Below, in pieces: positions 1 to 64,000 of a stretch of 64,000 nucleotides of DNA. The stretch lies in assembly GCF_024502345.1 (NCBI RefSeq), contig NZ_JALDNN010000001.1. One strand, written 5' to 3'. How positions within the stretch are numbered: position 1 is the stretch's first letter; the number at the start of each line of letters is the position of its first letter. The notes under the pieces are model-generated. The model saw only the letters and a program-made list of their open reading frames with translations. It did not search any database and was not told the DNA's origin. The stretch comes from Escherichia coli (GTDB taxonomy: Bacteria > Pseudomonadota > Gammaproteobacteria > Enterobacterales > Enterobacteriaceae). A program made the position numbers and the translations under genes.

Positions 1-788
1 TTGCACCTGCTGCATCGCCTCTCGCTTCGACCATCGTTCAGACCCCGGACGACGCGATTGTGGCGGGCTTCACCTCTATCCCTTCACAAGGGGATAACAT
101 GCCTGCTTACCATGCCAGACCAAAGCAAAGCGATGGCCCACTGCCAGTGGTCATTGTAGTGCAGGAAATTTTTGGCGTGCATGAACATATCCGCGACATT
201 TGTCGCCGTCTGGCGCTGGAGGGGTATCTGGCTATCGCACCTGAACTTTACTTCCGCGAAGGCGATCCGAATGATTTTGCCGATATCCCCACGTTGCTTA
301 GCGGTCTGGTAGCAAAAGTGCCTGACTCGCAGGTGCTGGCCGATCTCGATCATGTCGCCAGTTGGGCTTCCCGCAACGGCGGCGATGTTCATCGTTTAAT
401 GATCACCGGATTCTGCTGGGGTGGACGTATCACCTGGCTGTATGCCGCGCATAATCCACAGCTAAAAGCCGCAGTGGCGTGGTACGGCAAACTGACGGGC
501 GACAAGTCGTTGAATTCACCGAAACAACCTGTTGATATCGCAACCGATCTTAACGCGCCGGTTCTCGGCTTATATGGCGGTCTGGATAACAGTATTCCGC
601 AGGAGAGCGTTGAAACCATGCGCCAGGCGCTGCGGGCTGCTAATGCGAAAGCAGAGATTATCGTGTACCCGGATGCCGGGCATGCATTCAACGCTGATTA
701 TCGCCCGAGCTATCATGCCGAATCTGCGAAAGATGGCTGGCAGCGTATGCTGGAATGGTTTAAGCAGTATGGTGGGAAGCGGAGTTAG
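1..788 (+). CDS. ysgA: Dienelactone hydrolase family protein, 5' end outside window
   Basis: Open frame runs from window edge (..APAASPLASTIVQTPDDAIVAGFTSIPSQGDN..) to stop at 788; alpha/beta hydrolase with GFCWGG nucleophile elbow; K-12 synteny next to metE. Confidence 0.85.
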   Translation, partial: APAASPLASTIVQTPDDAIVAGFTSIPSQGDNMPAYHARPKQSDGPLPVVIVVQEIFGVHEHIRDICRRLALEGYLAIAPELYFREGDPNDFADIPTLLSGLVAKVPDSQVLADLDHVASWASRNGGDVHRLMITGFCWGGRITWLYAAHNPQLKAAVAWYGKLTGDKSLNSPKQPVDIATDLNAPVLGLYGGLDNSIPQESVETMRQALRAANAKAEIIVYPDAGHAFNADYRPSYHAESAKDGWQRMLEWFKQYGGKRS

Positions 789-1181
789 TTTCCTCTTAGT
801 CTATATTTGAGATGGTGAGTGAACGAGTGCGTTTTGCTGCCATCTCTGTCCCCCAAAAAATAATCAGTATGAATTGATTGGAGATTACGACTCCGCTATT
901 TGACCTTAAAAAAGTCGGCAAGTCATAGTCATAAATGAGTCTCTTCAATGGAAGACACCTTAGAGATTTACCATCAACTCCCATTCACAAACAAACATTA
1001 ATTATTATCAACACATTCACATTAATTATAAATCATCTCAGACCTTCCTGATAAAAAGATATTAAAGTGAAACATTTTGTTTTTCACATTTTAGTTCATC
1101 ACTTTTAGGCGTAAATAAAGGTAAAAAAAACAACAATACTATTTCTCTTTCACAAAAGAATTAACAAAAGGTTTTTCAAGG

Positions 1182-1657
1182 ATGAGTGATATTATTTACC
1201 TGACCATAACCGGAGAACAACAAGGATGTATTTCCTCTCGTTGTGGAACGAGCGCATCAATAGGTAATCGCTGGCAGATTGGCCATGATGATGAAATCTT
1301 CGCGTTCTCGCTCTCTAATAGTATTACGAATACAGGCAAAGGGTCATAATTGCATGGCCTTAGTTTCTGTAAATTGATTGACAAAAGCTCCCCGTTACTT
1401 ATTAACGCTATTAACAATAACGAGCAGTTGTTCATGGAGTTTGACTTCTATCGGATCAATAGGTTTGGTCGATGGGAGAAATATTACAACATTCAACTCC
1501 GCGGCGCGCTCTTATCAGCAATCAATCACCTGTTTACTGAGAACAATCTGGATACAGAAGCCATCACTGTCAGTTATGAATATATACTCTCCAGGCATCT
1601 GATTGCTAATACTGAATTTAGTTATTTGGCATTTCCCGATAACTACAACCGTCTGTT
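1182..1657 (+). pseudogene. hcp: T6SS Hcp-family tube protein gene, disrupted by in-frame TAA (1347-1349) and truncated at 1657 by IS903-like insertion
   Basis: Translation MSDIIYLTITGEQQGCISSRCGTSASIGNRWQIGHDDEIF..GKGS*LHGLSFCKLIDKSSPLLINAINNNEQLFMEFDFYRINRFG.. matches Hcp family signature (KLIDKSSP, FxFYRIN); N- and C-parts are in the same frame separated by TAA. Confidence 0.7.
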
Positions 1658-2714
1658 GGCTTTGTTGAATAAATCGAACTTTTGCTGAGTTGAAGGATCA
1701 GATCACGTATCTTCCCGACAACGCAGACCGTTCCGTGGCAAAGCAAAAGTTCAAAATCACCAACTGGCCCACCTACAATAAAGCCCTCATCAACCGTGGC
1801 TCCATAACTTTCTGGCTGGATGATGAAGCTATTCAGGCCTGGTATGAGTCAGCAACACCTTCTTCACGAGGCAGACCTCAGCGCTATTCTGACCTTGCCA
1901 TCACGACTGTGCTGGTCATTAAACGCGTATTCAGGCTGACCCTGCGCGCTGCGCAGGGCTTTATTGATTCCATTTTTTCTCTGATGAACGTTCCGCTACG
2001 CTGCCCGGATTACAGCTGTGTCAGCAGGCGGGCAAAGTCGGTTAATGTCAGTTTCAAAACGCCCACCCGGGGTGAAATCGCACACCTGGTAATTGATTCC
2101 ACCGGGCTGAAGGTCTTCGGTGAAGGCGAGTGGAAAGTCAAAAAGCATGGCCAGGAACGCCGCCGTATCTGGCGTAAGCTGCATCTCGCCGTTGACAGTA
2201 AAACACATGAAATCATCTGCGCTGACCTGTCGCTGAACAACGTTACGGACTCAGAGGCCTTCCCCGGGTTAATCCGGCAAACCCACCGGAAAATCAGGTC
2301 AGCCGCCGCCGATGGCGCTTACGATACCCGGCTATGTCACGATGAACTGCGGCGTAAGAAAATCAGCGCGCTTATCCCTCCCCGAAAAGGTGCGGGTTAC
2401 TGGCCCGGTGAATATGCAGACCGTAACCGTGCAGTGGCTAATCAGCGAATGACCGGGAGTAATGCGCGGTGGAAATGGACAACAGATTACAACCGTCGCT
2501 CGATAGCGGAAACGGCGATGTACCGGGTAAAACAGCTGTTCGGGGGTTCACTGACACTGCGTGACTACGATGGTCAGGTTGCAGAGGCTATGGCCCTGGT
2601 ACGAGCGCTGAACAAAATGACGAAAGCAGGTATGCCTGAAAGCGTGCGTATTGCCTGAAAACACAACCCGCTACGGGGGAGACTTACCCGAAATCTGATT
2701 TATTCAACAAAGCC
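1658..2714 (+). mobile_element. IS903-family (IS5 family) insertion sequence, 1057 bp, 18-bp terminal inverted repeats, flanked by 9-bp direct target duplication CCGTCTGTT (1649-1657 and 2715-2723)
   Basis: Left end GGCTTTGTTGAATAAATCG at 1658, right end GATTTATTCAACAAAGCC ending 2714; identical 9-mers on both flanks read directly from sequence; single DDE transposase ORF inside. Confidence 0.9.
1735..2658 (+). CDS. IS903-family DDE transposase (307 aa if GTG start at 1735; six-frame ORF extends to 1690)
   Basis: IS5-family transposase motifs (DSTGLKVFGEGEWKVKKHG..RRIWRKLHLAVD); lies inside the inverted-repeat-bounded element. Confidence 0.8.
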   Translation: MAKQKFKITNWPTYNKALINRGSITFWLDDEAIQAWYESATPSSRGRPQRYSDLAITTVLVIKRVFRLTLRAAQGFIDSIFSLMNVPLRCPDYSCVSRRAKSVNVSFKTPTRGEIAHLVIDSTGLKVFGEGEWKVKKHGQERRRIWRKLHLAVDSKTHEIICADLSLNNVTDSEAFPGLIRQTHRKIRSAAADGAYDTRLCHDELRRKKISALIPPRKGAGYWPGEYADRNRAVANQRMTGSNARWKWTTDYNRRSIAETAMYRVKQLFGGSLTLRDYDGQVAEAMALVRALNKMTKAGMPESVRIA

Positions 2715-2852
2715 CCGTCTGTTTATACCACGGCCAAAAACTAAAGCTGGTAATGGTTCAAAACACTTAATAGTAAAGCGGTTGGCAGACTGCTTGCTGC
2801 TGGCGGCATATACAATGGGAATATCGAAGGATTCAGGGAAACAGCAGACAAG

Positions 2853-3395
2853 TTGGGGGGAGATGCACCTGCTGGTTACGATCAATTTATGGATAACAAA
2901 GGGTTACTCATCGCTGGTGCTTCAATAGTTGCTGGAGCAGTTCTGGGGAGAATGAGACTCCCTGATTTGGAATCACTTGAGCATTTCGGAGCCAGAGGAG
3001 CAGTATCAGGAAGACCATTTAATCCCGACCTTGCCGGTGGTCCAATAGAAAATCTGACGACAGATGGCGTAACAATCAACAGGGAAGGTATCGCTATTGT
3101 TGAAAAACACATAGCCAGATTTGGTCATGACCCTGTAAATGAAGTGATGATCAATAGACTGAAAGACATTGAGAAAGGAAAAATCCCCCCAGAACAAGTA
3201 GATCTTAACTTCTATACTCATGAGTGTCGGGAATATCAGCGTTACTGTAATCTTGGTTGGGAAACAGGACAACCTGATGGTGACGCAGGCTATGCACTCT
3301 GGAATCATACGCATACTGCTACTCTAGAAGATTATAAACTTAAGGGAGAACTTAATGACTTATACCACCAGGATGCACTTGACTATGATAACTGA
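2853..3395 (+). CDS. Orphan toxin-like C-terminal domain ORF (possible extension domain of the disrupted Hcp, Hcp-ET type); frame is open back to 2754 without ATG
   Basis: 180-aa ORF with TTG start and no ATG upstream in frame, directly downstream of hcp/IS; overlaps the next small ORF; no catalytic motif recognised by eye. Confidence 0.35.
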   Translation: MGGDAPAGYDQFMDNKGLLIAGASIVAGAVLGRMRLPDLESLEHFGARGAVSGRPFNPDLAGGPIENLTTDGVTINREGIAIVEKHIARFGHDPVNEVMINRLKDIEKGKIPPEQVDLNFYTHECREYQRYCNLGWETGQPDGDAGYALWNHTHTATLEDYKLKGELNDLYHQDALDYDN

Positions 3396-3630
3396 AACTG
3401 AAATTAACGTACTGAAAGTTATGGCTGAGAAAGATATAAACTGGAACTGGATGAATCTCGATCGCACACTATCCATAAGGCAAATTCCAGGATTCGGTAA
3501 TGTTGTTAACATTGTTAACAAATTAGCTAACGAGGGTTTGGTTATTATTGAGGATAGCGGACATAAGTCTATGCCTCACTACCACGTTACTGAAAAGGGA
3601 TACAATTTCGTGAAAAGTGAGAATAAATAA
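3385..3630 (+). CDS. Small ORF in immunity-protein position (81 aa from ATG 3385; alternative start 3355)
   Basis: ATG overlaps the last codons of the upstream ORF (ATGATAACTGA arrangement), typical of translationally coupled toxin-immunity pairs; function not recognisable. Confidence 0.3.
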   Translation: MITETEINVLKVMAEKDINWNWMNLDRTLSIRQIPGFGNVVNIVNKLANEGLVIIEDSGHKSMPHYHVTEKGYNFVKSENK

Positions 3631-3776
3631 CGTAGCGTTGATTACTGAACAAATCGCTCAGGATTATATTTTGCGTAAAAATGATTCGGTTATTTCTGTA
3701 TCTGAACGGGCGCAGATAGCAAAATGGCTTCCGGTGATGGAAGCCATCAGATTATTGGCAAAGTGCGCGTTGTTCA

Positions 3777-3808
3777 TGCCGGATGCGGCGTGAACGCCTT
3801 GTCCGGCC
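3777..3808. repeat. REP (repetitive extragenic palindrome) element
   Basis: GCCGGATGCGGCGTGAACGCCTTGTCCGGCC palindromic unit. Confidence 0.6.
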
Positions 3809-3914
3809 AACAAAACTCAAAAATTCAATAAATTGCATAAATTATGTAGGCCTGGTATCAGGCAGTTTTGCCTCTTTCATCGTACTGCAATTTACAGTGA
3901 CTCGTTAATATTCA

Positions 3915-6176
3915 TCATCCCCGACGCAAATTCTGCGCCGCCTGCACCATGTTCGCCAGTGCCGCGCGGGTTTCTGGCCAGCCGCGCGTTTTCAGGCCAC
4001 AGTCCGGGTTGACCCACAGGCGCTCTGCCGGAATGCGTTTTGCCGCTTTCTTCAGCAAGGCTTCAATCCATTCCACGCTCGGTACGTTTGGCGAGTGAAT
4101 GTCATAGACGCCTGGACCGATTTCATTCGGATAATCAAACTCTTCAAACGACTCCAGCAACTCCATGTCGGAACGCGAGGTTTCGATGGTGATGACGTCT
4201 GCATCCAGTGCCGCAATCGAATCCATGATGTCGTTGAACTCGCAATAACACATGTGAGTGTGGATTTGTGTGTCATCTTTCGCCACGGCGGCGTTGATAC
4301 GGAAGGCCTCCACGCCCCACTGGAGATATGCATCCCAGTCGCTACGACGCAGCGGTAAACCTTCGCGCAGCGCCGGTTCATCAATCTGGATGATGCCAAT
4401 TCCTGCGGCTTCCAGGTCCGCCACTTCATCACGCAGCGCCAGCGCAATTTGTTTGGCGATGGTTTCACGGCTGACATCTTCACGCGGGAACGACCAGCAG
4501 AGAATGGTCACCGGGCCAGTCAGCATCCCTTTCACCGGTTTATCAGTCAGAGATTGCGCATACTTCGCCCACTCCACGGTAATCGGTGCCGGGCGGCTAA
4601 TGTCACCAATGACAATCGGTGGCTTCACGCAGCGGGAACCGTAGCTCTGTACCCAACCGTTTTGCGTAAAGACAAATCCGTCGAGGTGCTCGCCAAAGTA
4701 TTCCACCATGTCATTACGCTCGGCCTCGCCATGTACCAGCACATCCAGTCCCAAACGTTCCTGTTCAACAATGGCCTGCTTGATATGTTCCGCAATGCCC
4801 GTGCGGTAGTTGTTGGCGTCGAGATTACCCTTTTTGAAATCCAGACGCAGGGTACGAATTTCCGTGGTTTGCGGGAAGGAACCAATCGTGGTGGTCGGCC
4901 ACGCTGGCAGTTTAAAACGCGCACGCTGGGCTTCGGCACGCACTTCATAGACATTCGCACGCTGGCTGTCCTGGGCGGTGATCGCCGCCAGACGCTTTTC
5001 TACTGCCGGGTTATGTACACGAGTAGAGTGACGACGCGCCTGAATTGGAGCGCTCCACTCTGCCAGAGCTGCCGTATCACCACTGTTCAGCGCATCTCGC
5101 AGCAGTGCCAGTTCATGACATTTTTGCAGGGCGAAGGCAAACCAGCTTTTCACTTCTGCATCAAGACGCGTTTCCACGCTCAGGTCGATGGGGCTGTGCA
5201 GCAACGAGCAGGAAGATGCCACCCACAAATCACGTTTGCCGACAATGTCCTTAATTTGCGCATATTTCTCAGTAAGATCGGCGCGCCAGACGTTACGACC
5301 ATTGATCAGACCCGCAGACAGCAGCCAGTCAGAAGGCAGGCGCTTGTGCAGTTCAACAACGTCATCTTTACCATGTACAAGGTCCACATGCAGCCCCTGA
5401 ACAGGCAGCGCAGTAATCGTGTCGAGATTTGGCGTTACGCCTTCAAAATAGGTGGTCAGCAGCAGTTTCACCTGTCCCTGGAGCGCGTCGTAAGCGGGTT
5501 TGTATGCGTCCAGCCACGCCTGTGGTAGTTCCAGTACCAGCGCGGGTTCATCAATCTGTACCCACTCGATGCCGCGTTTCGCCAGTTCTGCCAGCACTTG
5601 CTGATAAACCGGCAGAATGTCGTTCAGCAGGCTAAGGCGGTCAAACTGTTCACCTTTCACTTTCCCCAGCCACAGGTAAGTAACCGGCCCCAGCAGCACA
5701 GGCTTAACGTTGTGGCCCAGCGCCAGCGCCTCGTCCACTTCCTCCAGCAGCTGCGTCCAGGTCAGTTTGAACTGTTGGCCTTTAACGAACTCCGGCACCA
5801 TGTAGTGATAGTTGGTGTTAAACCATTTGGTCATTTCCGCTGCCGCCGCAGGTTCGCCAGTCGGCGCACGTCCACGACCAATACGGAACAGGGTGTCGAT
5901 ATCTACCGAACCGTCTTTGTTCTGATGACGTGGCGGAACATTACCCAGCAGCAAACTGGTGGTCAGTACATGATCGTACCAGGCAAAATCGCCCACCGGC
6001 AGCAGGTCGATACCCGCTTGCTTTTGTTGATCCCAGTGACGAGCACGCAGTTCACGCCCTACTGTCAGCAGTTCTTCACGCGTGGAGTTCCCCGCCCAAT
6101 AACTTTCTTGCGCTTTTTTCAGCTCGCGACGCAGGCCAACGCGAGGGAAACCGAGGGTGTGATTCAATATTGTCAT
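3915..6176 (-). CDS. metE: Cobalamin-independent methionine synthase
   Basis: 753-aa ORF, N-terminus [29 protein letters not shown] typical of MetE; divergent from metR as in E. coli. Confidence 0.97.
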
Positions 6177-8152: not shown

Positions 8153-8227
8153 AATGGAAAACTCTTTGATTAACGAGTATCCATTGTAGCGAAGTATCAG
8201 GTTGACAACTGACCAAATAAAGAACGA

Positions 8228-10168: not shown

Positions 10169-10798
10169 ATGACCTTAGAATGGTGGTTTGCCTACCTGCT
10201 GACATCGATCATTTTAAGCCTGTCGCCAGGCTCTGGTGCAATCAACACTATGACCACCTCGCTCAACCACGGTTATCGCGGCGCGGTGGCGTCTATTGCT
10301 GGGCTTCAGACCGGACTGGCGATTCATATTGTGCTGGTTGGCGTGGGGTTGGGGACGCTATTTTCCCGCTCAGTGATTGCGTTTGAAGTGTTGAAGTGGG
10401 CAGGCGCGGCTTACTTGATTTGGCTTGGGATCCAGCAATGGCGCGCCGCTGGCGCAATTGATCTTAAATCGCTGGCCTCTACTCAATCGCGTCGACATTT
10501 GTTCCAGCGCGCAGTTTTTGTGAATCTCACCAATCCCAAAAGTATTGTGTTTCTGGCGGCGCTATTTCCGCAATTCATCATGCCGCAACAGCCGCAACAG
10601 CCGCAACTGATGCAGTATATCGTGCTCGGCGTCACCACTATTGTGGTCGATATTATTGTGATGATCGGTTACGCCACCCTTGCTCAACGGATTGCTCTAT
10701 GGATTAAAGGACCAAAGCAGATGAAGGCGCTGAATAAGATTTTCGGCTCGTTGTTTATGCTGGTGGGAGCGCTGTTAGCATCGGCGAGGCATGCGTGA
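10169..10798 (+). CDS. rhtB: LysE/RhtB-family homoserine/homoserine-lactone exporter
   Basis: 209-aa membrane ORF, LysE-family; divergent partner of rhtC as in K-12. Confidence 0.9.
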
Positions 10799-15058: not shown

Positions 15059-15946
15059 ATGGATGCAAAACAAACGCGGCAGGGCGTATTACTCGCTCTT
15101 GCCGCTTATTTTATTTGGGGTATTGCGCCAGCATACTTCAAGCTGATTTACTACGTGCCCGCCGATGAAATCCTGACGCATCGCGTGATCTGGTCGTTTT
15201 TCTTTATGGTGGTGCTGATGAGCATTTGCCGCCAGTGGTCCTATTTAAAAACGCTGATTCAGACGCCACAGAAAATTTTTATGCTGGCAGTCTCTGCCGT
15301 GCTGATTGGTGGCAACTGGCTACTGTTTATCTGGGCGGTGAACAATCACCATATGCTGGAAGCGAGCCTTGGTTACTTTATTAACCCGCTGGTGAACATT
15401 GTGCTGGGGATGATTTTCCTCGGCGAGCGATTCCGCCGGATGCAATGGCTGGCGGTGATTCTGGCGATATGTGGCGTGTTAGTCCAGCTGTGGACTTTTG
15501 GTTCGCTACCTATTATCGCGCTGGGACTGGCATTTAGTTTTGCCTTCTACGGTCTGGTACGCAAGAAGATTGCCGTTGAAGCGCAAACCGGCATGTTAAT
15601 TGAAACCATGTGGCTGCTGCCCGTGGCGGCAATTTACCTGTTTGCTATTGCCGACAGCTCAACCAGCCATATGGGGCAAAACCCGATGTCGCTGAATTTA
15701 CTGCTGATCGCCGCCGGTATTGTCACTACCGTACCGCTGTTGTGTTTTACCGCCGCTGCCACGCGCTTGCGTCTCTCAACGTTAGGCTTTTTCCAGTACA
15801 TTGGCCCGACGCTGATGTTCCTGCTGGCTGTGACGTTTTATGGTGAAAAACCGGGTGCCGATAAGATGGTGACTTTCGCCTTTATTTGGGTGGCGCTGGC
15901 AATTTTTGTGATGGATGCGATTTATACGCAGCGTAGAAAAAGTTAA
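15059..15946 (+). CDS. rarD: EamA/DMT-family membrane protein RarD
   Basis: 295-aa polytopic membrane ORF; synteny. Confidence 0.9.
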   Translation: MDAKQTRQGVLLALAAYFIWGIAPAYFKLIYYVPADEILTHRVIWSFFFMVVLMSICRQWSYLKTLIQTPQKIFMLAVSAVLIGGNWLLFIWAVNNHHMLEASLGYFINPLVNIVLGMIFLGERFRRMQWLAVILAICGVLVQLWTFGSLPIIALGLAFSFAFYGLVRKKIAVEAQTGMLIETMWLLPVAAIYLFAIADSSTSHMGQNPMSLNLLLIAAGIVTTVPLLCFTAAATRLRLSTLGFFQYIGPTLMFLLAVTFYGEKPGADKMVTFAFIWVALAIFVMDAIYTQRRKS

Positions 15947-15956
15947 GAATTAACAT

Positions 15957-16005
15957 GGGTAGGCCGTTTAATGAGCCTACCCACTGACTTATTTATCTTT
16001 TTTTG
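15957..16005. terminator. Hairpin GGGTAGGC/GCCTACCC followed by T-rich run; candidate bidirectional terminator after rarD
   Basis: 8-bp perfect stem read from sequence, then TTATTTATCTTTTTTTG. Confidence 0.55.
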
Positions 16006-16337
16006 AAAAAAATTAAGATAAGAAAAAGAACAATATTTGTTACAGGAAGTACCCCCAAAACTCCCCAGTACTTACTCCATCCTAGAGACATCGTATATCT
16101 ACCAAGGATTTGACAAAACCCAAAACTTAACCCTATACCTATACTTCTTAAATTTAATGTCGTAGTCAGGCTTAAAATAAATAGAACAAGGATGGTAATA
16201 GCCCACCACAATAACCATGCCTTAACAAAATCAGATTTTTTGCTGTAAGGTTCTTTACCCAAGAACAACTGCCAAAAGTTACCATTCCCCATATAGAATC
16301 CATTCCCCAAGATATTGTTTATAGAATAAAAATACAT
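15993..16337 (-). CDS. Small hypothetical inner-membrane protein (114 aa, two predicted TM helices), AT-rich
   Basis: ORF with hydrophobic segments AWLLWWAITILVLFILSL and WGVLGVLPVTNIVLFLILIFF; possibly the yigG-position gene; identity not verified. Confidence 0.4.
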   Translation of the reverse strand: MYFYSINNILGNGFYMGNGNFWQLFLGKEPYSKKSDFVKAWLLWWAITILVLFILSLTTTLNLRSIGIGLSFGFCQILGRYTMSLGWSKYWGVLGVLPVTNIVLFLILIFFKKR

Positions 16338-16616
16338 TCCAATTATATTTAATTAAAATATACCCCATCAATAAAAACTTACACACTCTAAATTACTACT
16401 GTATAGTTATCAATGCAAAGACTGCTATATTGCATATATATATGCAAACCTCATAATTCAGGTAATATATATATTCAAAACAATTATATATAAAAAACAA
16501 TGTAAAAAATATTCAAATCATCCATCAGAAATATATTCTACCCATCCAGGCTTGAGCATTTATCACGCTTTCAGTTCATAATCTATACATTAACATCATG
16601 GTCAATATTAATAACT

Positions 16617-16895
16617 TTGAATGATATCAACCTGGCTTTGAGTTTTATTCTGGTTATTAATAATACCTATGTAAATATCAATATTGGAGCAAAAAGAATA
16701 AGAGATACTGGATGTAAGGCAATCTACTTTGTATTGATTTCATTGGGTTTGACACTTTTTTCTATTATCTCTGCAGCAATTGAAGGGGTGAGATGTGAGT
16801 CATTAAGCGTCCAACTCAACGTGGCATGGATATTATTCACAACAATTATGTTATCTGCGATTCCCTCGGCTAAAATGTCGCTGTCAGCACACTAA
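16617..16895 (+). CDS. Small hypothetical membrane ORF (92 aa, TTG start, no ATG in open upstream frame); possibly a 5'-truncated remnant, DUF805-like RIRDTG motif
   Basis: Hydrophobic ORF; in-frame upstream sequence is open to 16506 without a Met codon. Confidence 0.3.
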   Translation: MNDINLALSFILVINNTYVNINIGAKRIRDTGCKAIYFVLISLGLTLFSIISAAIEGVRCESLSVQLNVAWILFTTIMLSAIPSAKMSLSAH

Positions 16896-16919
16896 CTTAC
16901 TCACAGCGACATCGTATAG

Positions 16920-17062
16920 TTACAGCCAGTTCTTGCGCTTAAAGTACAGATACGGTGCCAGGCCCGCGAGGATCATAAAGATAATCGCGCCTGGGTAGCC
17001 GAAACTCCACTTCAGTTCTGGCATAAACTCAAAGTTCATGCCATAGCTGGAGGCAATCGGCG
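16920..17062 (-). pseudogene. Duplicated, diverged 3' fragment of corA (last ~47 codons, about 95 percent identical to 19416-19558)
   Basis: Encodes [48 protein letters not shown], near-identical to the CorA C-terminus; homology ends abruptly near 17062. Confidence 0.85.
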
Positions 17063-17233
17063 TAGGAAAAAGTTTCCTAATCGGTAAATTCAATATTTTG
17101 TTATTAACAATGAGCAAGACCAATCATTAACGACGTTCTCTTCAGAGATGTAATGAAAAAATGTGAAGTGTACTTCTTTTTTAAATATTTTTTTACCCTA
17201 GCATTTGTTCTCAAATTGGGTAATGACTCCAAC

Positions 17234-17737
17234 TTATTGATAGTGTTTTATGTTCAGATAATGCCCGATGACTTTGTCATGCAGCTCCACCGATTTTGAG
17301 AACGACAGCGACTTCCGTCCCAGCCGTGCCAGGTGCTGCCTCAGATTCAGGTTATGCCGCTCAATTCGCTGCGTATATCGCTTGCTGATTACGTGCAGCT
17401 TTCCCTTCAGGCGGGATTCATACAGCGGCCAGCCATCCGTCATCCATATCACCACGTCAAAGGGTGACAGCAGGCTCATAAGACGCCCCAGCGTCGCCAT
17501 AGTGCGTTCACCGAATACGTGCGCAACAACCGTCTTCCGGAGCCTGTCATACGCGTAAAACAGCCAGCGCTGGCGCGATTTAGCCCCGACGTATCCCCAC
17601 TGTTCGTCCATTTCCGCGCAGACGATGACGTCACTGCCCGGCTGTATGCGCGAGGTTACCGACTGCGGCCTGAGTTTTTTAAATGGCGGAAAATCGTGTT
17701 GAGGCCAACGCCCATAATGCGGGCGGTTGCCCGGCAT
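17234..17737 (-). CDS. insB: IS1 InsB (expressed as InsAB' transposase by -1 frameshift)
   Basis: 167-aa ORF typical of IS1 InsB, overlapping insA 3' end. Confidence 0.95.
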
Positions 17738-17931
17738 CCAACGCCATTCATGGCCATATCAATGATTTTCTGGTGCGTACCGGGTTGAGAAGCGGTGTAA
17801 GTGAACTGCAGTTGCCATGTTTTACGGCAGTGAGAGCAGAGATAGCGCTGATGTCCGGCGGTGCTTTTGCCGTTACGCACCACCCCGTCAGTAGCTGAAC
17901 AGGAGGGACAGCTGATAGAAACAGAAGCCAC
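17656..17931 (-). CDS. insA: IS1 InsA
   Basis: 91-aa [46 protein letters not shown].. identical in character to IS1 InsA. Confidence 0.95.
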
Positions 17932-18029
17932 TGGAGCACCTCAAAAACACCATCATACACTAAATCAGTAAGTTGGCAGCATCACCCTCAAATTGATATT
18001 GAGCTTAAATATAACCAAGGAAAATGTAA

Positions 18030-18886
18030 ATGAATAACACATTACTTCCATCAATTAATATTCCCTGTACACTTTTCGAAACTATTAGTTTATTTGATGA
18101 TTATTCTGCTGATGATATGCAATATGGTGATATGGTGATATGGTAGAACAAGATTTTCTCTCACTCGGCCTAAGCGATATCTCAGCAAAAGTTGATCCTT
18201 ACAGACTTATTAAATACCATTTCCCTAGCCCAGGTTCTATTAATGTTGCTTTTAGTGCCTCAAGTTCCGGAACAAAAATATCACAACGTGAATGCACTGA
18301 TATTTTATTTGCAGAAATGAAAGAACTAGCAAAAATGTTTTCCTTTTTTGGACAATATAAAACACTTATCGAAGATCTGATTGAACATTTTAGATATGGA
18401 AATGGCAGCAATTTTCATAGCCAACAATTAAATTTATCTTTTCATGAAAAAATAAATAAATATGGTTATAATAGTCCAATACGAATAATCAAAGAATGTA
18501 TCGAAAATGGCATTAATTCAACTCCCTCGACAGGATACCAACCTCTTATCCTGCAAAGCATTAAAACCAAATTACTTTCATCAAGACTAAATAAATTTAA
18601 TGACTTCGAGGACAGTTTTAATGGCTTAGGAATCAGTGTTCATGATATTTCAGCTCAAAAAATATCTCTTTTAAGTTTTCAAAAATACGCTATAGGATGG
18701 AGTGCAACAATTCATTTTGTAGCACAGGACCACTTCGGTCTTGATGTAACTGATATCAAAAACAAGACTTACAGCAAATATAGATTTTTTCGCATATGGT
18801 TCTTTTTACAACGGCATAAAGACTTTGCTTTCAAACCTTTTTTCACCAATTTTAACACTATCGAAAGAATCGAAAATTATCTATGA
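18030..18886 (+). CDS. Hypothetical protein, first gene of accessory two-gene cassette; currently split: 38-codon leader ORF (18030-18146) plus 248-aa ORF (18140-18886) separated by an 8-bp tandem-repeat frameshift
   Basis: ATG 18030 preceded by AAGGA at 9 nt; removing one 8-bp repeat unit fuses the two ORFs into about 283 aa; AT-rich; no recognisable family motif by eye. Confidence 0.55.
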
Positions 18887-19374
18887 AAAGCAAACTCCAG
18901 AAAATTATATTATGTTTATTTCTTCTATGCTGCATCTATAATTTATGGACATTGCGTCCTGTACAGATTTTGTATACATACTCTGATGCTGGCAATTCAG
19001 TCTTTCTGGTCGTTGATCATCTGCCATGGACTGACAGCGATAAAATAAATTGGTATCTGAAGCATCAGAATGAAATTAAAAATCAACATCCCCTACCAGA
19101 AGGTAGTTGGCATACCTGGTATGTCATTGATATCGGTAATGGCTTCACTGACTATAAAAAATATATCGAAGGGCCGTATGAAGATCTCTACTGTTTCCCG
19201 ACAATTAAGAGCAATGATAATTGCATCGTGAAAAATTACTTAATGGTTATTAATGAATACCCTTATCGTAACACTCATATTGTTATTAACGATTTTACTG
19301 AGTATCAATTAACACAAGAAAATAAAATAGAGCGAGTTTTCAATCCGCATGACTTTAAAAAAGACAATTTTTAG
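18883..19374 (+). CDS. Hypothetical signal-anchored/exported small protein (163 aa), second gene of cassette, translationally coupled (ATGA overlap)
   Basis: N-terminal hydrophobic segment KIILCLFLLCCIYNLW; start overlaps stop of upstream gene; AT-rich. Confidence 0.6.
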   Translation: MKSKLQKIILCLFLLCCIYNLWTLRPVQILYTYSDAGNSVFLVVDHLPWTDSDKINWYLKHQNEIKNQHPLPEGSWHTWYVIDIGNGFTDYKKYIEGPYEDLYCFPTIKSNDNCIVKNYLMVINEYPYRNTHIVINDFTEYQLTQENKIERVFNPHDFKKDNF

Positions 19375-19380
19375 AAATAA

Positions 19381-19408
19381 GCCGGATAAAAAAATAGCTT
19401 TATCCGGC
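19381..19408. terminator. REP-like hairpin GCCGGATAAA/TTTATCCGGC between convergent cassette gene and corA
   Basis: 10-bp perfect inverted repeat with 8-nt loop read from sequence. Confidence 0.5.
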
Positions 19409-19415
19409 ACTCATA

Positions 19416-35296: not shown

Positions 35297-36502
35297 ATGA
35301 CGGAACAAGAAAAAACCTCCGCCGTGGTTGAAGAGACCAGGGAGGCCGTGGACACCACGTCACAACCTGTCGCAACAGAAAAAAAGAGTAAGAACAATAC
35401 CGCATTGATTCTCAGCGCGGTGGCTATCGCTATTGCTCTGGCGGCGGGCGTCGGTTTGTATGGCTGGGGTAAACAACAGGCCGTCAATCAGACCGCCACC
35501 AGCGATGCCCTGGCTAACCAACTGACGGCATTGCAAAAAGCCCAGGAGAGCCAAAAAGCCGAGCTGGAAGGCATTATTAAGCAACAAGCTGCACAGCTTA
35601 AGCAGGCGAATCGTCAGCAAGAAACGCTGGCAAAACAGTTGGATGAAGTCCAACAAAAGGTCGCCACCATTTCCGGCAGCGATGCTAAAACCTGGCTGCT
35701 GGCTCAGGCCGATTTTCTGGTGAAACTCGCCGGACGGAAGCTGTGGAGCGATCAGGACGTCACGACCGCTGCAGCGTTGCTGAAAAGTGCAGATGCCAGC
35801 CTGGCGGATATGAATGACCCGAGTCTGATTACCGTTCGTCGGGCAATTACCGATGATATCGCCAGCCTTTCTGCAGTTTCGCAGGTGGATTATGACGGCA
35901 TCATCCTTAAGCTTAATCAGCTTTCAAATCAGGTAGATAACCTGCGTCTGGCCGATAATGACAGCGATGGTTCGCCGATGGATTCCGACGGTGAAGAGCT
36001 TTCCAGTTCCATCAGCGAATGGCGTATCAATCTGCAAAAAAGCTGGCAGAACTTTATGGACAACTTCATTACGATTCGCCGTCGTGATGACACCGCCGTA
36101 CCGCTGTTAGCGCCAAATCAGGATATCTATCTGCGCGAAAATATTCGCTCTCGCCTGCTGGTCGCAGCACAAGCTGTACCGCGTCATCAGGAAGAGACTT
36201 ATCGCCAGGCGCTGGAGAACGTCTCCACCTGGGTACGTGCTTACTACGATACTGATGATGCCACCACCAAAGCGTTCCTCGACGAGGTGGACCAGTTAAG
36301 CCAGCAAAATATCTCGATGGATCTTCCGGAAACCCTGCAAAGCCAGGCGATGCTGGAAAAACTGATGCAGACTCGCGTACGTAACCTGCTGGCACAACCG
36401 GCAGCGGGGACAACGGAAGCTAAACCTGCACCTGCACCTGCACCTGCACCTGCACCTGCACCGCAAGGTGATACTCCGGCAGCCGCGCCGCAAGGAGAAT
36501 AA
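35297..36502 (+). CDS. hemX: HemX (uroporphyrinogen-III C-methyltransferase-like membrane protein), contains (AP)n repeat
   Basis: 401-aa ORF with N-terminal TM segment, coiled-coil region and C-terminal [13 protein letters not shown] tract. Confidence 0.9.
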
Positions 36503-49250: not shown

Positions 49251-49254
49251 GTGA

Positions 49255-55368: not shown

Positions 55369-55376
55369 ATCCTCAT

Positions 55377-57979: not shown

Positions 57980-58063
57980 AGTGGTGTGAGTTCTTAAACT
58001 TGGGGTAAATCTCGAACTTAATGTTGTGAATGGTATGGCAGGATCATCCATGCCTGTTTACGG

Positions 58064-58165
58064 TCATCGACTCATGTCTTTTCGCTGCCTGGTCACAGGA
58101 GAGTACGCAGAACTGAAACGACAAGACGGATTGAGTGACGAGCCAGAAATCTGTTCACTTCGCAT
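58064..58165 (-). CDS. rhoL: rho operon leader peptide
   Basis: 33-codon ORF MRSEQISGSSLNPSCRFSSAYSPVTRQRKDMSR upstream of rho on same strand. Confidence 0.7.
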   Translation of the reverse strand: MRSEQISGSSLNPSCRFSSAYSPVTRQRKDMSR

Positions 58166-58305
58166 TTAAGATAAAACGGGAAGCGTTGGAAATTACAAGA
58201 TTCAAACTTAATAAGGTATGTTTAATACGAAGTCAACACTAAGTTAGCATGACTCACGCCGGGCGTCCAGTTTTTAGCGACGGGGCACCCGAACATGAAA
58301 TTCCC

Positions 58306-58635
58306 TTACGCCAGGTTAGCGTCGAGGAACTCTTTCAACTGACCTTTAGACAGTGCACCCACTTTGGTTGCCGCCACTTCACCGTTTTTGAACAGCAGCA
58401 GAGTCGGGATACCACGGATGCCATATTTCGGCGCAGTGCCAGGGTTTTGATCGATGTTCAGTTTTGCAACGGTCAGTTTGCCCTGATATTCGTCAGCGAT
58501 TTCATCCAGAATCGGGGCGATCATTTTGCACGGACCGCACCACTCTGCCCAGAAATCGACGAGGATCGCCCCGTCCGCTTTGAGTACATCCGTGTCAAAA
58601 CTGTCGTCAGTCAGGTGAATAATTTTATCGCTCAT
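58306..58635 (-). CDS. trxA: Thioredoxin 1
   Basis: 109-aa protein [41 protein letters not shown] (WCGPC active site). Confidence 0.98.
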
Positions 58636-58765
58636 ATATAACTCCACAGGAATAAGCCTGGCGTGTTGGTTTCGTTGTTGGTGTAACATTAACCAACTAA
58701 AGGTTGACTTTATTTCACCGGATACGCTTTCGTAAAGCAATAGTAAGCTGATATTCTACCACACT

Positions 58766-60031
58766 ATGAGCAAAACACATTTAACAGAACAGAAGTTTTC
58801 CGACTTCGCCCTGCATCCGAAGGTTGTAGAAGCCCTTGAAAAAAAAGGGTTTCATAACTGTACGCCCATTCAGGCACTGGCCCTTCCGCTGACGCTGGCG
58901 GGTCGTGACGTAGCCGGGCAGGCGCAAACCGGTACCGGGAAAACGATGGCGTTTCTTACGTCAACGTTTCATTATCTTCTCTCTCATCCTGCGATTGCCG
59001 ATCGCAAGGTGAATCAACCACGTGCCTTAATTATGGCACCGACGCGTGAACTTGCCGTGCAGATCCATGCCGACGCAGAACCGCTGGCGGAAGCTACCGG
59101 CCTGAAGCTGGGTCTGGCTTACGGTGGTGATGGCTACGACAAACAGCTGAAAGTGCTGGAAAGCGGCGTTGACATTCTGATTGGCACTACGGGGCGTTTA
59201 ATTGACTACGCCAAGCAGAACCACATTAACCTCGGTGCCATTCAGGTGGTGGTACTGGACGAAGCCGATCGCATGTACGATCTGGGCTTTATTAAAGATA
59301 TCCGCTGGCTGTTCCGCCGTATGCCGCCTGCAAACCAGCGCCTCAACATGCTGTTCTCCGCCACGCTTTCGTACCGGGTACGTGAACTGGCGTTCGAGCA
59401 GATGAACAATGCCGAATATATTGAAGTGGAACCGGAACAGAAAACGGGCCACCGTATTAAAGAAGAGCTTTTCTACCCTTCTAACGAAGAAAAAATGCGT
59501 TTGCTGCAAACGCTGATCGAAGAAGAGTGGCCAGACAGAGCGATTATTTTCGCCAATACCAAACACCGTTGTGAAGAGATCTGGGGCCACCTGGCGGCAG
59601 ATGGTCATCGTGTCGGTTTGTTGACAGGCGATGTCGCGCAGAAAAAACGTCTGCGTATTCTTGATGAATTTACCCGTGGCGATCTGGATATTCTGGTTGC
59701 CACCGACGTTGCCGCGCGTGGTTTGCATATTCCGGCAGTGACGCACGTCTTTAACTACGATTTACCCGATGACTGTGAAGATTACGTTCACCGTATTGGT
59801 CGTACAGGTCGCGCAGGCGCAAGCGGTCACTCTATCAGCCTGGCGTGTGAAGAGTATGCATTGAATTTGCCTGCTATTGAGACCTATATTGGTCACTCAA
59901 TTCCGGTAAGCAAATACAATCCGGACGCATTGATGACCGATCTGCCAAAACCGCTGCGCCTCACGCGCCCGCGCACAGGCAATGGTCCGCGTCGTACTGG
60001 CGCTCCGCGTAATCGTCGTCGTTCAGGTTAA
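58766..60031 (+). CDS. rhlB: ATP-dependent RNA helicase RhlB (DEAD-box)
   Basis: 421-aa ORF with Q motif, Walker [13 protein letters not shown] box (VLDEAD), Arg-rich C-terminus. Confidence 0.95.
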
Positions 60032-60166
60032 ATAAAAAATGTCATACTCAAAATCATTCAAACTGTATCAAGATGGCAAGAGAATGAATCCCGATGAGCT
60101 TACTGTAGTAAGTGATTCAGGTGAAAGAATGCAGCCAACACAGAGACAGATTGAAGGATGAAGAGT

Positions 60167-61651
60167 ATGGGTTCCACCTCGTCGCTGTATGCAGCCATTG
60201 ATCTCGGTTCGAATAGTTTTCATATGCTGGTTGTGCGCGAGGTGGCTGGAAGCATCCAGACGCTGACGCGAATAAAACGCAAAGTGCGTCTGGCTGCTGG
60301 CCTGAATAGCGAAAATGCCCTCTCCAATGAAGCAATGGAGCGCGGTTGGCAATGTTTGCGCCTGTTTGCTGAACGTCTGCAAGATATTCCTCCCTCGCAA
60401 ATTCGCGTTGTCGCTACGGCGACGTTACGCCTTGCCGTCAATGCGGGTGATTTTATTGCCAAAGCGCAGGAAATTCTCGGTTGTCCGGTACAGGTGATCA
60501 GCGGTGAAGAGGAAGCACGTCTGATTTATCAGGGCGTTGCTCACACCACTGGTGGTGCCGATCAGCGCCTGGTGGTGGATATAGGCGGAGCCAGTACTGA
60601 ACTGGTAACCGGCACGGGTGCACAAACCACCTCGTTGTTTAGCCTGTCGATGGGCTGCGTCACCTGGCTGGAACGCTATTTTGCCGATCGTAATCTGGGG
60701 CAGGAAAATTTTGATGCTGCAGAAAAAGCGGCACGCGAAGTGTTACGTCCGGTTGCCGATGAATTACGGTATCACGGCTGGAAAGTGTGCGTTGGTGCTT
60801 CCGGCACCGTGCAGGCGTTACAGGAAATCATGATGGCACAGGGGATGGATGAACGCATTACCCTGGAAAAGTTGCAGCAATTGAAACAACGCGCCATTCA
60901 TTGCGGTCGGCTGGAGGAACTGGAGATTGACGGGCTGACGCTGGAACGTGCGTTAGTGTTCCCGAGTGGTCTGGCGATCCTGATCGCCATTTTTACCGAA
61001 CTGAATATTCAGTGTATGACCCTGGCGGGCGGTGCGCTGCGTGAAGGCCTGGTCTACGGCATGTTGCATCTGGCCGTCGAGCAGGATATTCGCAGCCGTA
61101 CGCTGCGTAATATTCAACGCCGCTTTATGATCGATATTGATCAGGCACAGCGCGTAGCCAAAGTTGCGGCTAACTTCTTCGATCAGGTGGAAAACGAATG
61201 GCATCTTGAAGCAATAAGCCGCGATTTGCTCATCAGCGCCTGTCAGCTTCATGAAATCGGCCTGAGCGTTGACTTCAAACAAGCGCCGCAACACGCTGCT
61301 TATCTGGTGCGTAATCTGGATCTTCCCGGTTTTACCCCCGCACAGAAAAAATTGCTGGCGACGCTACTGCTCAACCAGACTAATCTGGTCGATCTCTCAT
61401 CGCTGCATCAGCAAAATGCCGTACCGCCGCGCGTCGCAGAACAACTCTGCCGTTTACTACGCCTGGCCATCATTTTTGCCAGCCGTCGCCGTGACGATCT
61501 CGTGCCAGAGATGACATTACAGGCTAACCATGAGCTGTTGACCTTGACGCTTCCGCAAGGTTGGCTAACCCAACATCCGCTGGGTAAAGAGATTATTGCT
61601 CAGGAAAGCCAGTGGCAGAGCTATGTCCACTGGCCGCTGGAAGTGCATTAA
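60167..61651 (+). CDS. gppA: Guanosine pentaphosphate phosphohydrolase / exopolyphosphatase
   Basis: 494-aa protein from [23 protein letters not shown] (Ppx/GppA family). Confidence 0.95.
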
Positions 61652-61659
61652 TGAGTAAG

Positions 61660-61693
61660 TGCCGGATGCGATGCTGACGCATCTTTTCCGGCC
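61660..61693. repeat. REP element between convergent gppA and rep
   Basis: GTGCCGGATGCGATGCTGACGCATCTTTTCCGGCC. Confidence 0.6.
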
Positions 61694-61697
61694 TTGA

Positions 61698-63719
61698 TTA
61701 TTTCCCTCGTTTTGCCGCCATCATCGCTTTCAGATTCGCCAGATGGCTTTGCCCTTTCTGCATCCGTTCTTCGGCGCTGACCACTTTGCGCTCCTGTTCC
61801 CAAATCAGATCATCCTGCGGCAGCTCCAGCAAAAATCGGCTCGGCTCCGGGCGCACCAGTTCGCCGTACTGACGGCGTTCTTTACACAGCGTAAAGGTCA
61901 ATTCCTTCTGGGCGCGGGTAATGCCGACATAGGCCAGCCGCCGCTCCTCATCGATATTATCTTCATCGATGCTGCTCTGGTGCGGCAAAAACCCTTCTTC
62001 CATACCGACCATGTAGACATAAGGAAACTCCAGCCCTTTCGACGCGTGGAGAGTCATCAGTTGCACCTGATCCAGCTCTTCTTCACTCTCACCACGCTCC
62101 ATCATGTCGCGCAAAGTAAAGCGCGTCACCACCTGGGTGAGCGTCATCGGCTCATCCAGTTCACTGCCTTCCAGCATCTCCGTCATCCAGCTAAACAGTT
62201 GGTTGACGTTCTTCATGCGCATTTCGGCGGCTTTCGGGCTGGGCGATGTTTCGTACAGCCAGGATTCATAATCCATGCCATGGATCAGATCACGCACCGC
62301 AGCAATCGGCTCCCGCTCCGCCAGGCGCTGGATTTCTGCCAACCAGTGAGTGAAGCGGGTCAATGCTTCATAACCACGTCCGCTAAGCGTCTGACTCAGG
62401 CCCATATCAAAGCTGGCGGTAAACATGCTTTTATTGCGCGTCATCGCCCACTCACCCAGCTTTTTCAGCGTCGCAGGGCCAATCTCTCGCTTCGGCGTGT
62501 TAACGATACACAGAAATGCGCTGTCATCGTCCGGGTTAGTCAGCACGCGCAGATAAGCCAGCAAGTCCTTGATTTCAGGACGAGAGAAAAACGACGTACC
62601 ACCGGATATTTTGTACGGGATGCGGTTTTGCATCAGGAATTTTTCAAATACCCGCGACTGATGGTTGCCGCGATAAAGAATGGCATAATCTTTGTACTGC
62701 GTTTTATTGACGAAGTGATGGGCGATCAGCTCGCCAGTAACGCGCTCGGCTTCATGTTCCTCGTTATTCGCGCTTAAAACTTTTAGCTCTGTGCCGTAAC
62801 CCAGTTCGGAGAACAGACGCTTTTCAAAGACGTGCGGGTTATTGGCGATCAGGATGTTCGCCGCTTTCAGAATACGCCCGGAAGAGCGATAGTTCTGCTC
62901 AAGCTTAATCACCTTCAGCGCCGGAAAATCCTGACTCAGCAGCACCAGGTTTTGCGGACGTGCACCGCGCCAGGAGTAGATCGACTGGTCATCGTCACCC
63001 ACCACGGTAAAGCGCGCGCGGCTGCCCACCAGCAGTTTCACCAGCTCATACTGGCTGGTGTTGGTGTCCTGATACTCATCCACCAGCAGATAGCGAATTT
63101 TGTTCTGCCAGCGCTCGCGGACTTCTTCATTGCGTTGCAGCAGCAACGTCGGCAATAAAATCAGATCATCGAAGTCGAGAACGTTACAGGCTTTCAGGTG
63201 TGCATCATACAGCCCATAACAATGGGCAAAAATACGATCCCGCTCGCCCTTTGCCTCTGCCGCCGCCTGCGCCGGAGTTTTGAGATCGTTCTTCCAGTTA
63301 GAGATGGTCGAAATCAGTTGTTGCAGGAGAACTTTGTCATCTTCAATCAGCCCCTCGGTCAACTCTTTAAGCAAAGCAAGCTGATCGGTATCGTCAAACA
63401 ACGAGAAGTTCGCTTTCATCCCAAGCGCCGCATACTCGCGTTTGATGATATCCAGCCCCAACGTGTGGAAGGTGGAGATCATCAGCCCACGCGCCTCTTT
63501 GCGCCCCAGCGTCTGCCCGACACGCTCTTTCATCTCGCGCGCCGCCTTATTGGTAAAGGTCACTGCCGCGATATGTCGCGCCTGATAACCGCAACCGCGG
63601 ATCAGATGGGCGATTTTATTGGTGATAACACGAGTTTTACCGGAACCCGCGCCCGCCAGCACCAGGCAGGGGCCGGTAACGAATTCGACAGCTTGTTGTT
63701 GGCCGGGGTTTAGACGCAT
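61698..63719 (-). CDS. rep: ATP-dependent DNA helicase Rep
   Basis: 673-aa protein from [31 protein letters not shown] (Walker A); SF1 helicase; longer six-frame start rejected. Confidence 0.97.
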
Positions 63720-63925
63720 AGGTGTATTGCTCAATCTTCGAACGGGGGGAGGATTGTAGCAGAATCGCATTTGAATGTGACCGCGTGTAAGCCGCTAACC
63801 GGTTGGCTGCGGATGTTTAAATCAGAGAGAGAAGACCGAAATCGGAGTTCATCGTGAATCCATTAGACTTAGAAAATATCGGGTCGTAACGTTGTGTTAT
63901 TACTTTTTCAGAGTTTACTAAGGAG

Positions 63926-64000
63926 AGGTTTACTCGTGGCGATTAATTTCAGCCCTAAGGTTGGTGAAATACTGGAATGCAACTTTGGTAACTATCCTGT
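63926..64000 (+). CDS. 5' end of an ORF continuing beyond the window (GTG start, AINFSPKVGEILECNFGNYP..); identity not determined
   Basis: Open frame preceded by GGAGAGG Shine-Dalgarno-like sequence; too short to classify. Confidence 0.25.

Follow-up and report, generated by a model that had tools for sequence, protein, structure and literature searches.

Hcp-ET proteins are Hcp proteins carrying a toxin as a C-terminal extension (Ma et al. 2017, reviewed in PMC6730261), and one of them, Hcp-ET1, is a characterised HNH DNase. For DUF3289 proteins, which are encoded together with DUF943 immunity proteins, a colicin M-like effector function has been described, secretion of the published homologue by the T6SS being putative (PMC11148199). 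More generally, in polymorphic-toxin loci (T6SS, CDI, Rhs, colicins), a degraded toxin next to an intact immunity gene is found recurrently across strains, as it is in the locus described here. A further feature of this locus, the inactivation of genes by IS1 insertion together with point lesions, is shared with Shigella and host-restricted enterobacteria; in Shigella, genes of the backbone are broken too.

The window, by which we mean the whole stretch of 64,000 nucleotides analysed, corresponds to the E. coli region ysgA-metE…corA…cyaA…wec/rff…rep. Compared with K-12 by blastn, it contains exactly three islets (780-3918, 15939-19415 and 27616-30182). No further accessory segment was found, the remainder of the window being covered at 100% by thousands of E. 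coli genomes. The earlier note had described three islets with inactivating lesions, two of them with an IS, in a backbone left whole, and every element of this description was found in the sequence. Its nonsense codon, IS903 and frameshift of islet 1 were all located, as a change of Gln56 to TAA, an IS903B copy and a 1-bp deletion; its 8-bp repeat frameshift of islet 2 is a third repeat unit at 18122-18145; its in-frame TGA of islet 3 lies at 27858-27860. The features are as follows.

780-3918: islet 1, between ysgA and metE, not in K-12 (blastn)
1182-3395, plus strand: orphan Hcp-ET pseudogene, Hcp (TssD) domain followed by a putative C-terminal toxin; the intact form has 382 aa
1347-1349, plus strand: nonsense codon TAA, CAA (Gln56) in intact alleles; C to T change at 1347, from alignment
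1649-1657 and 2715-2723: 9-bp target duplication of IS903B, CCGTCTGTT, single copy in the IS-free reference
1658-2714, plus strand: IS903B (IS5 family), 1057 bp, 100% identical to annotated IS903B copies
2757-2758, plus strand: 1-bp deletion frameshifting Hcp-ET, from DNA alignment; intact ws5-3 reads GGT CTC AAA
2760-3395, plus strand: out-of-frame C-terminal toxin part of Hcp-ET, 100% identical to a reference CDS of 150 aa
3385-3630, plus strand: putative immunity gene of 81 aa, intact, which overlaps the 3' end of the toxin gene; 100% identical to a reference CDS
15939-19415: islet 2, between rarD and corA, where K-12 has yigG/yigF
16920-17066, minus strand: duplicated 3' corA fragment within islet 2 (tblastn 93.8% to corA residues 269-316; blastn 92-93%)
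17210-17218 and 17987-17995: 9-bp duplication CTCAAATTG flanking IS1
17219-17986, minus strand: IS1, 768 bp, with intact insA (17931-17656) and insB' (17737-17234) ORFs
18030-18886, plus strand: DUF3289 / YPO3983-family pseudogene, predicted colicin M-like T6SS effector; the intact form has 282 aa
18122-18145, plus strand: 8-bp tract ATATGGTG-ATATGGTG-ATATGGTA, three units versus two, with a stop at 18144-18146
18883-19374, plus strand: DUF943 immunity gene, intact (Pfam DUF943 1.5e-26), 99.4% identical to the reference, full length
27616-30182: islet 3 segment, gone from K-12, where a fusion scar is left
27459-28937, plus strand: first DKNYY-family paralogue, a gene of 492 codons with a signal peptide; TGA at 27858-27860 replaces TGG (Trp134)
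28934-30256, plus strand: second DKNYY-family paralogue, intact and 440 aa long; its allele is rare

A homologue of islet 1 is present in 848 of 5426 complete E. coli genomes. The conceptually repaired Hcp-ET ORF has an Hcp/TssD domain at its N-terminus (Pfam T6SS_HCP, 1.8e-13), and an intact allele matches TIGR03344 at 1.6e-36. Full-length homologues have 377-382 aa, and intact alleles are found in E. coli ws5-3 and MLI121. The extension (some 200 aa) is conserved; in other Enterobacterales it is also joined to non-Hcp N-termini, marked by PF26362. Sequence searches with this toxin domain gave no match in Pfam, NCBIfam or PDB, and its AlphaFold model, built on an alignment of 32 sequences, reached a pLDDT of 49, too low for use. 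PGAP names the tail of the toxin part 'colicin'. As to the frameshift, a G6 run near 2855 was also considered, and ruled out by alignment with intact homologues. The immunity gene could use an alternative start at 3355, giving 91 aa; its exact protein product is encoded on at least 1000 contigs. In the AR_0372-type allele, two immunity-like genes are found in tandem.

The element inserted in Hcp-ET is IS903B, by its length, its target duplication, its perfect 18-bp inverted repeats and its intact transposase ORF (1735-2658, 307 aa) with DDE_Tnp_1 domains. It was found at this site in none of the 5426 complete genomes, the best coverage being 92%. The two other Hcp-ET lesions are common to strains devoid of the IS, so that IS903B hit an already dead gene.

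Islet 2 is present in 2632 of the 5426 complete genomes, and in other strains its corA fragment carries the PGAP annotation of a partial pseudogene. Once the additional 8 bp are removed, DUF3289 matches its Pfam family at 2.8e-85, and the intact allele matches TIGR03034 at 5.6e-132; the DUF943 gene overlaps its stop by 4 bp (18883-18886). The element upstream is IS1, as its 768 bp, its insA/insB' frames and its target duplication indicate, and 43 bp separate it from the DUF3289 start codon (ATG, 18030). The earlier note had placed this IS1 in the promoter region. The proximity was confirmed; a consensus scan found no plus-strand sigma-70 promoter in the IS-free sequence upstream of DUF3289, and the promoter status therefore stays positional. 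We infer that expression of DUF3289 would have been lost through IS1. None of the 5426 complete genomes has IS1 at this site, nor does L029, which is 99.99% identical to the window. As L029 has the additional 8 bp and the TGA without IS1, the insertion is later than the frameshift. Contigs of ccpm3961 and GCA_050022275.1 reach 57-76 bp into IS1 before they end, and these two genomes therefore probably have it too.

Downstream of the frameshift, an ORF of 248 aa restarts at ATG 18140 (Met35), and this remainder is identical to the intact allele, with no secondary lesion. DUF3289 may have been inactivated very recently, or may still be expressed from Met35. Public sequences contain four alleles of the tract: an intact one with two units, a frameshifted one with three, and a CAA to TGA variant that exists with two units and with three. 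Two contigs sampled from one islet haplotype differ in copy number. Each OFF allele keeps the 248-aa ORF from Met35, preceded by GGTGAT Shine-Dalgarno-like repeats, so that the OFF state could yield an N-terminally truncated, perhaps non-secreted toxin. The grouping of lesions in one 24-bp tract could go beyond neutral decay. That the tract would be a slipped-strand ON/OFF switch of DUF3289, rather than the site of a one-off lesion, appears highly improbable to us.

Islet 3 is present in full in 1394 of 5426 complete genomes, and absent from about 74%, where the flanks alone match. The exact paralogue 2 was found on 13 contigs, and all those that cover the paralogue 1 site have the split version of it. 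Recoding of the UGA at 27858, as selenocysteine or otherwise, was ruled out. The ancestral codon is TGG and TGA occurs only in a rare lineage, which makes it a plain nonsense mutation, possibly a slightly leaky one.

The core genes of the window had been reported free of premature stops and frameshifts, and about 55 proteins were indeed found full length. All 51 reference proteins aligned end to end, without stop or frameshift, and rhtC, uvrD and thrP are full-length ORFs. The RNA features (four tRNAs, GlmZ and the trxA thermometer) are whole. Exact look-ups showed the rhtB-209 and metE alleles to be widespread. In the IS-free window the islets account for about 12% of the sequence, and all six independent lesions fall inside them (p ~3e-6 under uniform placement). 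This clustering is real, yet purifying selection on core genes predicts just that: these would look clean because selection removes lesions there.

Single-base deletions and changes in 8-bp repeats are error types of some sequencing platforms, and the earlier note had itself envisaged that the lesions might be sequencing errors. Each of them was, however, seen again in independent assemblies or sequencing runs. Among the 5426 complete genomes, 66 have the 1-bp deletion junction and 15 have Q56* as an exact 55-mer; the 55-aa product of the latter is encoded on at least 1000 contigs, some of them named S. sonnei or S. boydii. The three-copy tract was found in 2 of 1702 complete genomes, and its 248-aa product on 61 contigs. 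For islet 3, the TGA 55-mer was absent from all 5426 complete genomes, and the split products were found on 69 (133 aa) and 98 (325 aa) contigs. The Hcp::IS903B junction is present in sequencing run SRR33906014, and clean 9-bp target duplications flank both IS elements. These independent occurrences refute sequencing or assembly error for practical purposes, and we give it a virtually nil probability. The same note had read the lesions as Shigella-like or host-restricted decay. On such a reading, the window would be a local sample of genome-wide IS expansion and pervasive pseudogenisation. Two IS in 64 kb exceed the average density of a K-12-like genome, proteins assigned by name to S. sonnei, S. 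boydii and S. flexneri also contain the Q56* Hcp fragment, and complete RefSeq E. coli genomes come no closer to the window than 98.6-99.4%. However, the nearest sequences are draft E. coli genomes, with 99.96-99.99% identity over 21 kb; all have the TGA, and those covering the tract site have the additional 8 bp there too. The one of these identified in the literature, the commensal ccpm3961 (99.96%), is a faecal isolate from a healthy preschooler, placed by the tree of its paper between phylogroups B1 and E, apart from Shigella. Gut-metagenome contigs are among the carriers of the rarer lesion alleles, and several lesions are common to ordinary STEC, livestock and commensal strains. Pseudogene rates in Shigella-like genomes are about 6-10%, so that 3-5 broken genes would be expected among the ~55 of the backbone, and none was found. 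The lesions are of mixed age, four of the six being older than the IS insertions and two of those four common to ordinary E. coli, and IS903B is not known as a typical Shigella expansion element. Judged on the 64 kb of the window and on these relatives, reductive evolution of the Shigella kind is very unlikely here, and that reading was not upheld.

Positive selection for loss, by which costly or self-harmful toxin genes would be knocked out and immunity genes kept, had been put forward as an alternative, and its premise stands in part: islets 1 and 2, two of the three, are toxin-immunity modules, the toxin domain of islet 1 being putative, and every in-gene lesion in them lies in the toxin. 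The islet 1 immunity gene is intact in 12 of 12 genomes inspected (the window and 11 others), versus 5 of 12 for Hcp-ET. Across lineages, Hcp-ET has at least six independent lesions and DUF3289 at least three. Unrelated, ordinary E. coli have broken these toxin genes independently: ATCC 25922 and BEN2908 have W98*, OkiPb01711 has a 22-bp deletion, and the pig isolate HCP4S3_I4 has the same 22-bp deletion together with an IS3 insertion; for DUF3289, an IS1B insertion inside the gene in strain EC14 and the CAA to TGA change in metagenome contigs. Against this, 1697 of the 1702 complete genomes probed keep the two-copy tract length and lack the additional 8 bp of the window. E. coli B and O157:H7 are among them, each with a span of 1406 bp that agrees with the intact reference. 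Moreover, the toxin is a target 4.7 times the size of the immunity gene, and seven events would all fall in the toxin with p ~0.25 (0.82^7) from target size alone; the asymmetry of lesions was therefore dropped, as underpowered evidence of selection. The secondary hits, IS903B and IS1, fell in or beside already dead genes and carry no information on selection, and islet 3 is not a known toxic module. We hence consider selection for loss unlikely.

Rather, the window probably belongs to an ordinary gut-commensal lineage, in which dispensable islet cargo decays stepwise under relaxed purifying selection, this relaxation being the presumed cause of decay. The independent breakages listed above and the reduction of islet 3 to a scar in K-12 are in keeping with it. 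The cargo would consist of an exported DKNYY pair and of two orphan type VI toxin-immunity pairs, one formed by Hcp-ET and its downstream immunity gene, the other by DUF3289 and DUF943. Loss of the T6SS, if it has occurred in this strain, would account for relaxed selection on the two effectors. Graded allele counts (66, 15, 2 and 0) suggest an order of events. One base would first have been deleted from Hcp-ET, and the nonsense codon would then have arisen in the same gene. Much later, and in this lineage, slippage would have added the third 8-bp unit to DUF3289, and the TGG of DKNYY-1 would have changed to TGA. IS1 and IS903B would have come last, landing beside or within dead genes because insertion there costs nothing. 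Immunity genes may be kept by protecting against toxins of neighbours, as we infer, or may merely be small targets. The overall pattern is already known biology.

Broken accessory genes and IS found together in one region are not evidence of Shigella-like reduction, since lesion ages can differ by decades to millennia and IS persist where they are harmless. Across E. coli, genes have decayed repeatedly in the ysgA-metE and rarD-corA intervals, which are orphan T6SS effector loci, and in lptM-cyaY, with its DKNYY genes. The use of these observations lies in correct annotation, in pangenome and pseudogene curation, and in the study of immunity genes that outlive their toxins; beyond this they are of little importance.

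How far, then, does the locus resemble the systems already described? With the Hcp-ET effectors reviewed in PMC6730261, islet 1 shares the N-terminal Hcp/TssD domain, the small putative immunity gene directly downstream, and the orphan position outside any T6SS cluster; its C-terminal extension, some 200 aa long, would be a swappable toxin module like theirs. Unlike those effectors, its Hcp-ET gene has been inactivated three times over, and the database labels 'colicin' and 'HNH endonuclease' given to its toxin are putative only, unlike the DNase assignment of Hcp-ET1. Islet 2 resembles the DUF3289/DUF943 pair of PMC11148199 in its strong Pfam and TIGR03034 matches, its 4-bp gene overlap and its orphan location. 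It differs from that pair by the 8-bp frameshift, by the IS1 that cuts the gene off from upstream DNA, and by the 248-aa ORF left from Met35. As for the retention of orphan immunity genes in polymorphic-toxin loci, the small size of the immunity target explains the asymmetry in the window equally well. Finally, unlike Shigella, the window has only dispensable accessory genes broken, by lesions of very different ages, and its relative identified in the literature is a commensal.

A megablast comparison with 5,426 complete E. coli genomes shows that the window is a chromosomal region running from ysgA/metE through recQ, corA, uvrD, xerC, dapF, cyaA, hemCDXY and aslAB, after which come four tRNAs, the wec/rff (ECA) cluster, and finally rho, trxA, rhlB, gppA and rep. 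The best complete-genome identity was only 98.6-99.4%, and the first 22 kb were covered to at most 92% by any of these genomes. Alignment to K-12 MG1655 left exactly three non-K-12 segments, called islets 1 to 3. As the earlier note had claimed, all three carry lesions and two carry IS elements.

Features of the three islets, in window coordinates
780-3918, islet 1 (ysgA-metE gap), absent from K-12 MG1655
1347, C to T in the Hcp-ET gene, Gln56 to TAA (Q56*)
1658-2714, IS903B in the Hcp-ET gene, with CCGTCTGTT duplication
2757/2758, 1-bp deletion in the Hcp-ET gene
15939-19415, islet 2 (rarD-corA gap), non-K-12 segment, with the next five features in this order
99-aa ORF, minus strand
16920-17066, 147-bp copy of the corA 3' end
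17219-17986, IS1, with CTCAAATTG duplication
18030-18886, DUF3289 / YPO3983-family gene
18883-19374, DUF943 gene, overlapping DUF3289
27616-30182, islet 3 (lptM-cyaY gap), non-K-12 segment
27858-27860, TGA in DKNYY paralogue 1, TGG in other strains

The backbone was indeed intact, as also claimed. When 51 reference proteins from three annotated genomes were compared with the window by tblastn, each of the 51 matched over its entire length (98.6-100% identity), and no stop or frameshift was found in them. The rhtC, uvrD and thrP ORFs have the expected lengths; the four tRNAs, GlmZ and the trxA thermometer are intact. The sole length differences are in-frame, in rhtB and hemX. The rhtB allele (+9 bp at 10582-10590, 209 aa versus 206 aa) is common in public assemblies and missing from the otherwise 99.99% identical draft L029. 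In hemX, a repeat-length change (-6 bp at 36423) gives 401 aa, versus 403 aa in the near-identical L012 and L013. In the pig isolate HCP4S3_I4 (L051, 36296-37666), aslA is cut to a fragment adjoining an IS200C copy, so that other strains lose even genes counted here as “backbone”.

In islet 1, the gene starting at 1182 encodes an Hcp/TssD domain (Pfam 1.8e-13) and has the Hcp-ET architecture, Hcp fused to a putative C-terminal toxin (reviewed in PMC6730261). Intact Hcp-ET, of 382 aa, is found in E. coli ws5-3 (99.4% nucleotide identity) and MLI121, and alignment of these alleles to the window located the three lesions listed. The IS903B is 100% identical to annotated copies elsewhere. The toxin gene's end is overlapped by an intact 81-aa gene, the putative immunity gene.

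As to islet 2, a DUF3289 protein was shown in a 2024 study (PMC11148199) to act in the periplasm as a colicin M-like toxin that its DUF943 partner neutralises. Within the islet, the corA 3'-end copy matches the genuine corA terminus (19416-19562) at 92-93% identity; its presence suggests that the DUF3289/DUF943 module arrived through recombination at corA. At 18122-18145 the window has three ATATGGTG-type units versus two in intact alleles, causing a stop at 18144-18146. A 248-aa ORF starting anew at 18140 matches DUF3289 residues 35-282 exactly. Between IS1 and the DUF3289 start codon lie 43 bp; no promoter was identified upstream of DUF3289, and IS1 may affect its expression.

Islet 3 holds two DKNYY-family paralogues (36% mutual identity, both with signal peptides), of which the second is intact. 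The K-12 lptM-cyaY spacer (yzcX region), compared with window 27459-27615 and 30183-30256, is a scar in which N-terminal codons of paralogue 1 run straight into C-terminal codons of paralogue 2; the pair was thus deleted in K-12, rather than gained by the window. Only 1,394 of the 5,426 genomes have the complete islet. Those without it match by the flanks alone, and its absence outside K-12 would be consistent with a similar loss.

Lesions were counted with short probes seeding on the mutant allele only. Among the 5,426 complete genomes, the Hcp-ET deletion was found in 66, Q56* in 15, and the DKNYY TGA, like IS903B or IS1 at the window's sites, in none; of the 1,702 genomes carrying this allele family, 2 had the DUF3289 +8 bp. 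In a collection of 15 billion proteins, at least 1,000 contigs encode the 55-aa Hcp-ET nonsense product, with S. sonnei, S. boydii and E. coli among the names given to these proteins; the 248-aa DUF3289 product occurs on 61 contigs, and the DKNYY paralogue 1 fragments on 69 and 98. The Hcp::IS903B junction was found in one independent run. Recurring thus in independent genomes, contigs and a run, the lesions are real and not sequencing errors. Their graded counts point to stepwise acquisition: they would have been gained successively across a long time span, the IS903B and IS1 insertions probably being the youngest events, in or beside already dead genes.

The earlier note had read the pattern as Shigella-like or host-restricted decay. 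Such genome reduction is very improbable, being contradicted by the clean backbone, the graded lesion ages and the identity of the relatives. Over 21 kb, two NCBI drafts match the window at 99.96-99.97% identity. One of them, LLYC01, comes from a healthy preschooler (E. coli ccpm3961); in its authors' tree it branches between phylogroups B1 and E, away from the isolate that groups with Shigella. Contigs of both end 57-76 bp inside IS1, as expected if, as is likely, both share the insertion. L029 carries the +8 bp and the TGA without IS1. The window's DKNYY-2 allele is rare (13 contigs), and paralogue 1 is split in every such contig that covers the site. Human gut metagenome contigs are further carriers of the window's rarer lesion alleles.

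The same genes are broken elsewhere. Among 12 genomes inspected at islet 1, Hcp-ET is dead in 7 and the immunity gene is annotated intact in all. The lesions, at least partly independent, comprise the -1 deletion (alone or together with Q56*), a 22-bp deletion, an IS3 insertion, and W98*, which ATCC 25922 and BEN2908 have in their B2-type allele. At islet 2, DUF3289 is interrupted by IS1B in strain EC14, and metagenome contigs, some with two units and some with three, have CAA to TGA in the 24-bp tract at 18122-18145. In HCP4S3_I4 the full set recurs independently: Hcp-ET is dead, DUF3289 frameshifted, the immunity genes intact and DKNYY reduced to a scar. The other proposal, toxic modules selected for loss, rightly foresaw toxins in two islets. 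Selection for their loss is nevertheless unlikely, and went unsupported because 1,697 of 1,702 genomes probed keep the two-copy tract length and not the window's +8 bp, the bias of lesions towards toxin over immunity genes is that predicted from a 4.7-fold target-size difference, and the IS hits are secondary.

The pattern of broken accessory genes and IS elements is real but ordinary: lesions and insertions would persist where selection fails to purge them, and once a gene is dead further hits would be cost-free. The 8-bp tract, at the 5' end of DUF3289, is the one feature that might conceal something beyond ordinary decay. The public data hold at least four alleles of it: CA with two units (intact), CA with three (the window), and TG with two or three, both with the CAA to TGA nonsense change, in metagenome contigs. 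Unit number is the only difference between two contigs of one islet haplotype, and all defective alleles keep the 248-aa ORF from Met35. It is unlikely that the tract acts as a slippage switch.

The C-terminal extension of Hcp-ET had no match in Pfam, NCBIfam or PDB, and its AlphaFold model was of too low quality for use. Database labels are inconsistent (“colicin” or “HNH endonuclease”). A 377-aa allele class (AR_0372, AREA_492, elppa5) has two small genes after the toxin, of 85 aa and 81 aa, which may be a cognate and an orphan immunity gene. The C-terminal domain (window 2760-3395, about 180 aa) recurs at 60-77% identity on unrelated, non-Hcp N-termini, in proteins of 348-381 aa from Pantoea, Klebsiella, Cronobacter and Atlantibacter. 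It is a putative, uncharacterised polymorphic toxin domain, joined to differing N-termini as such domains are.
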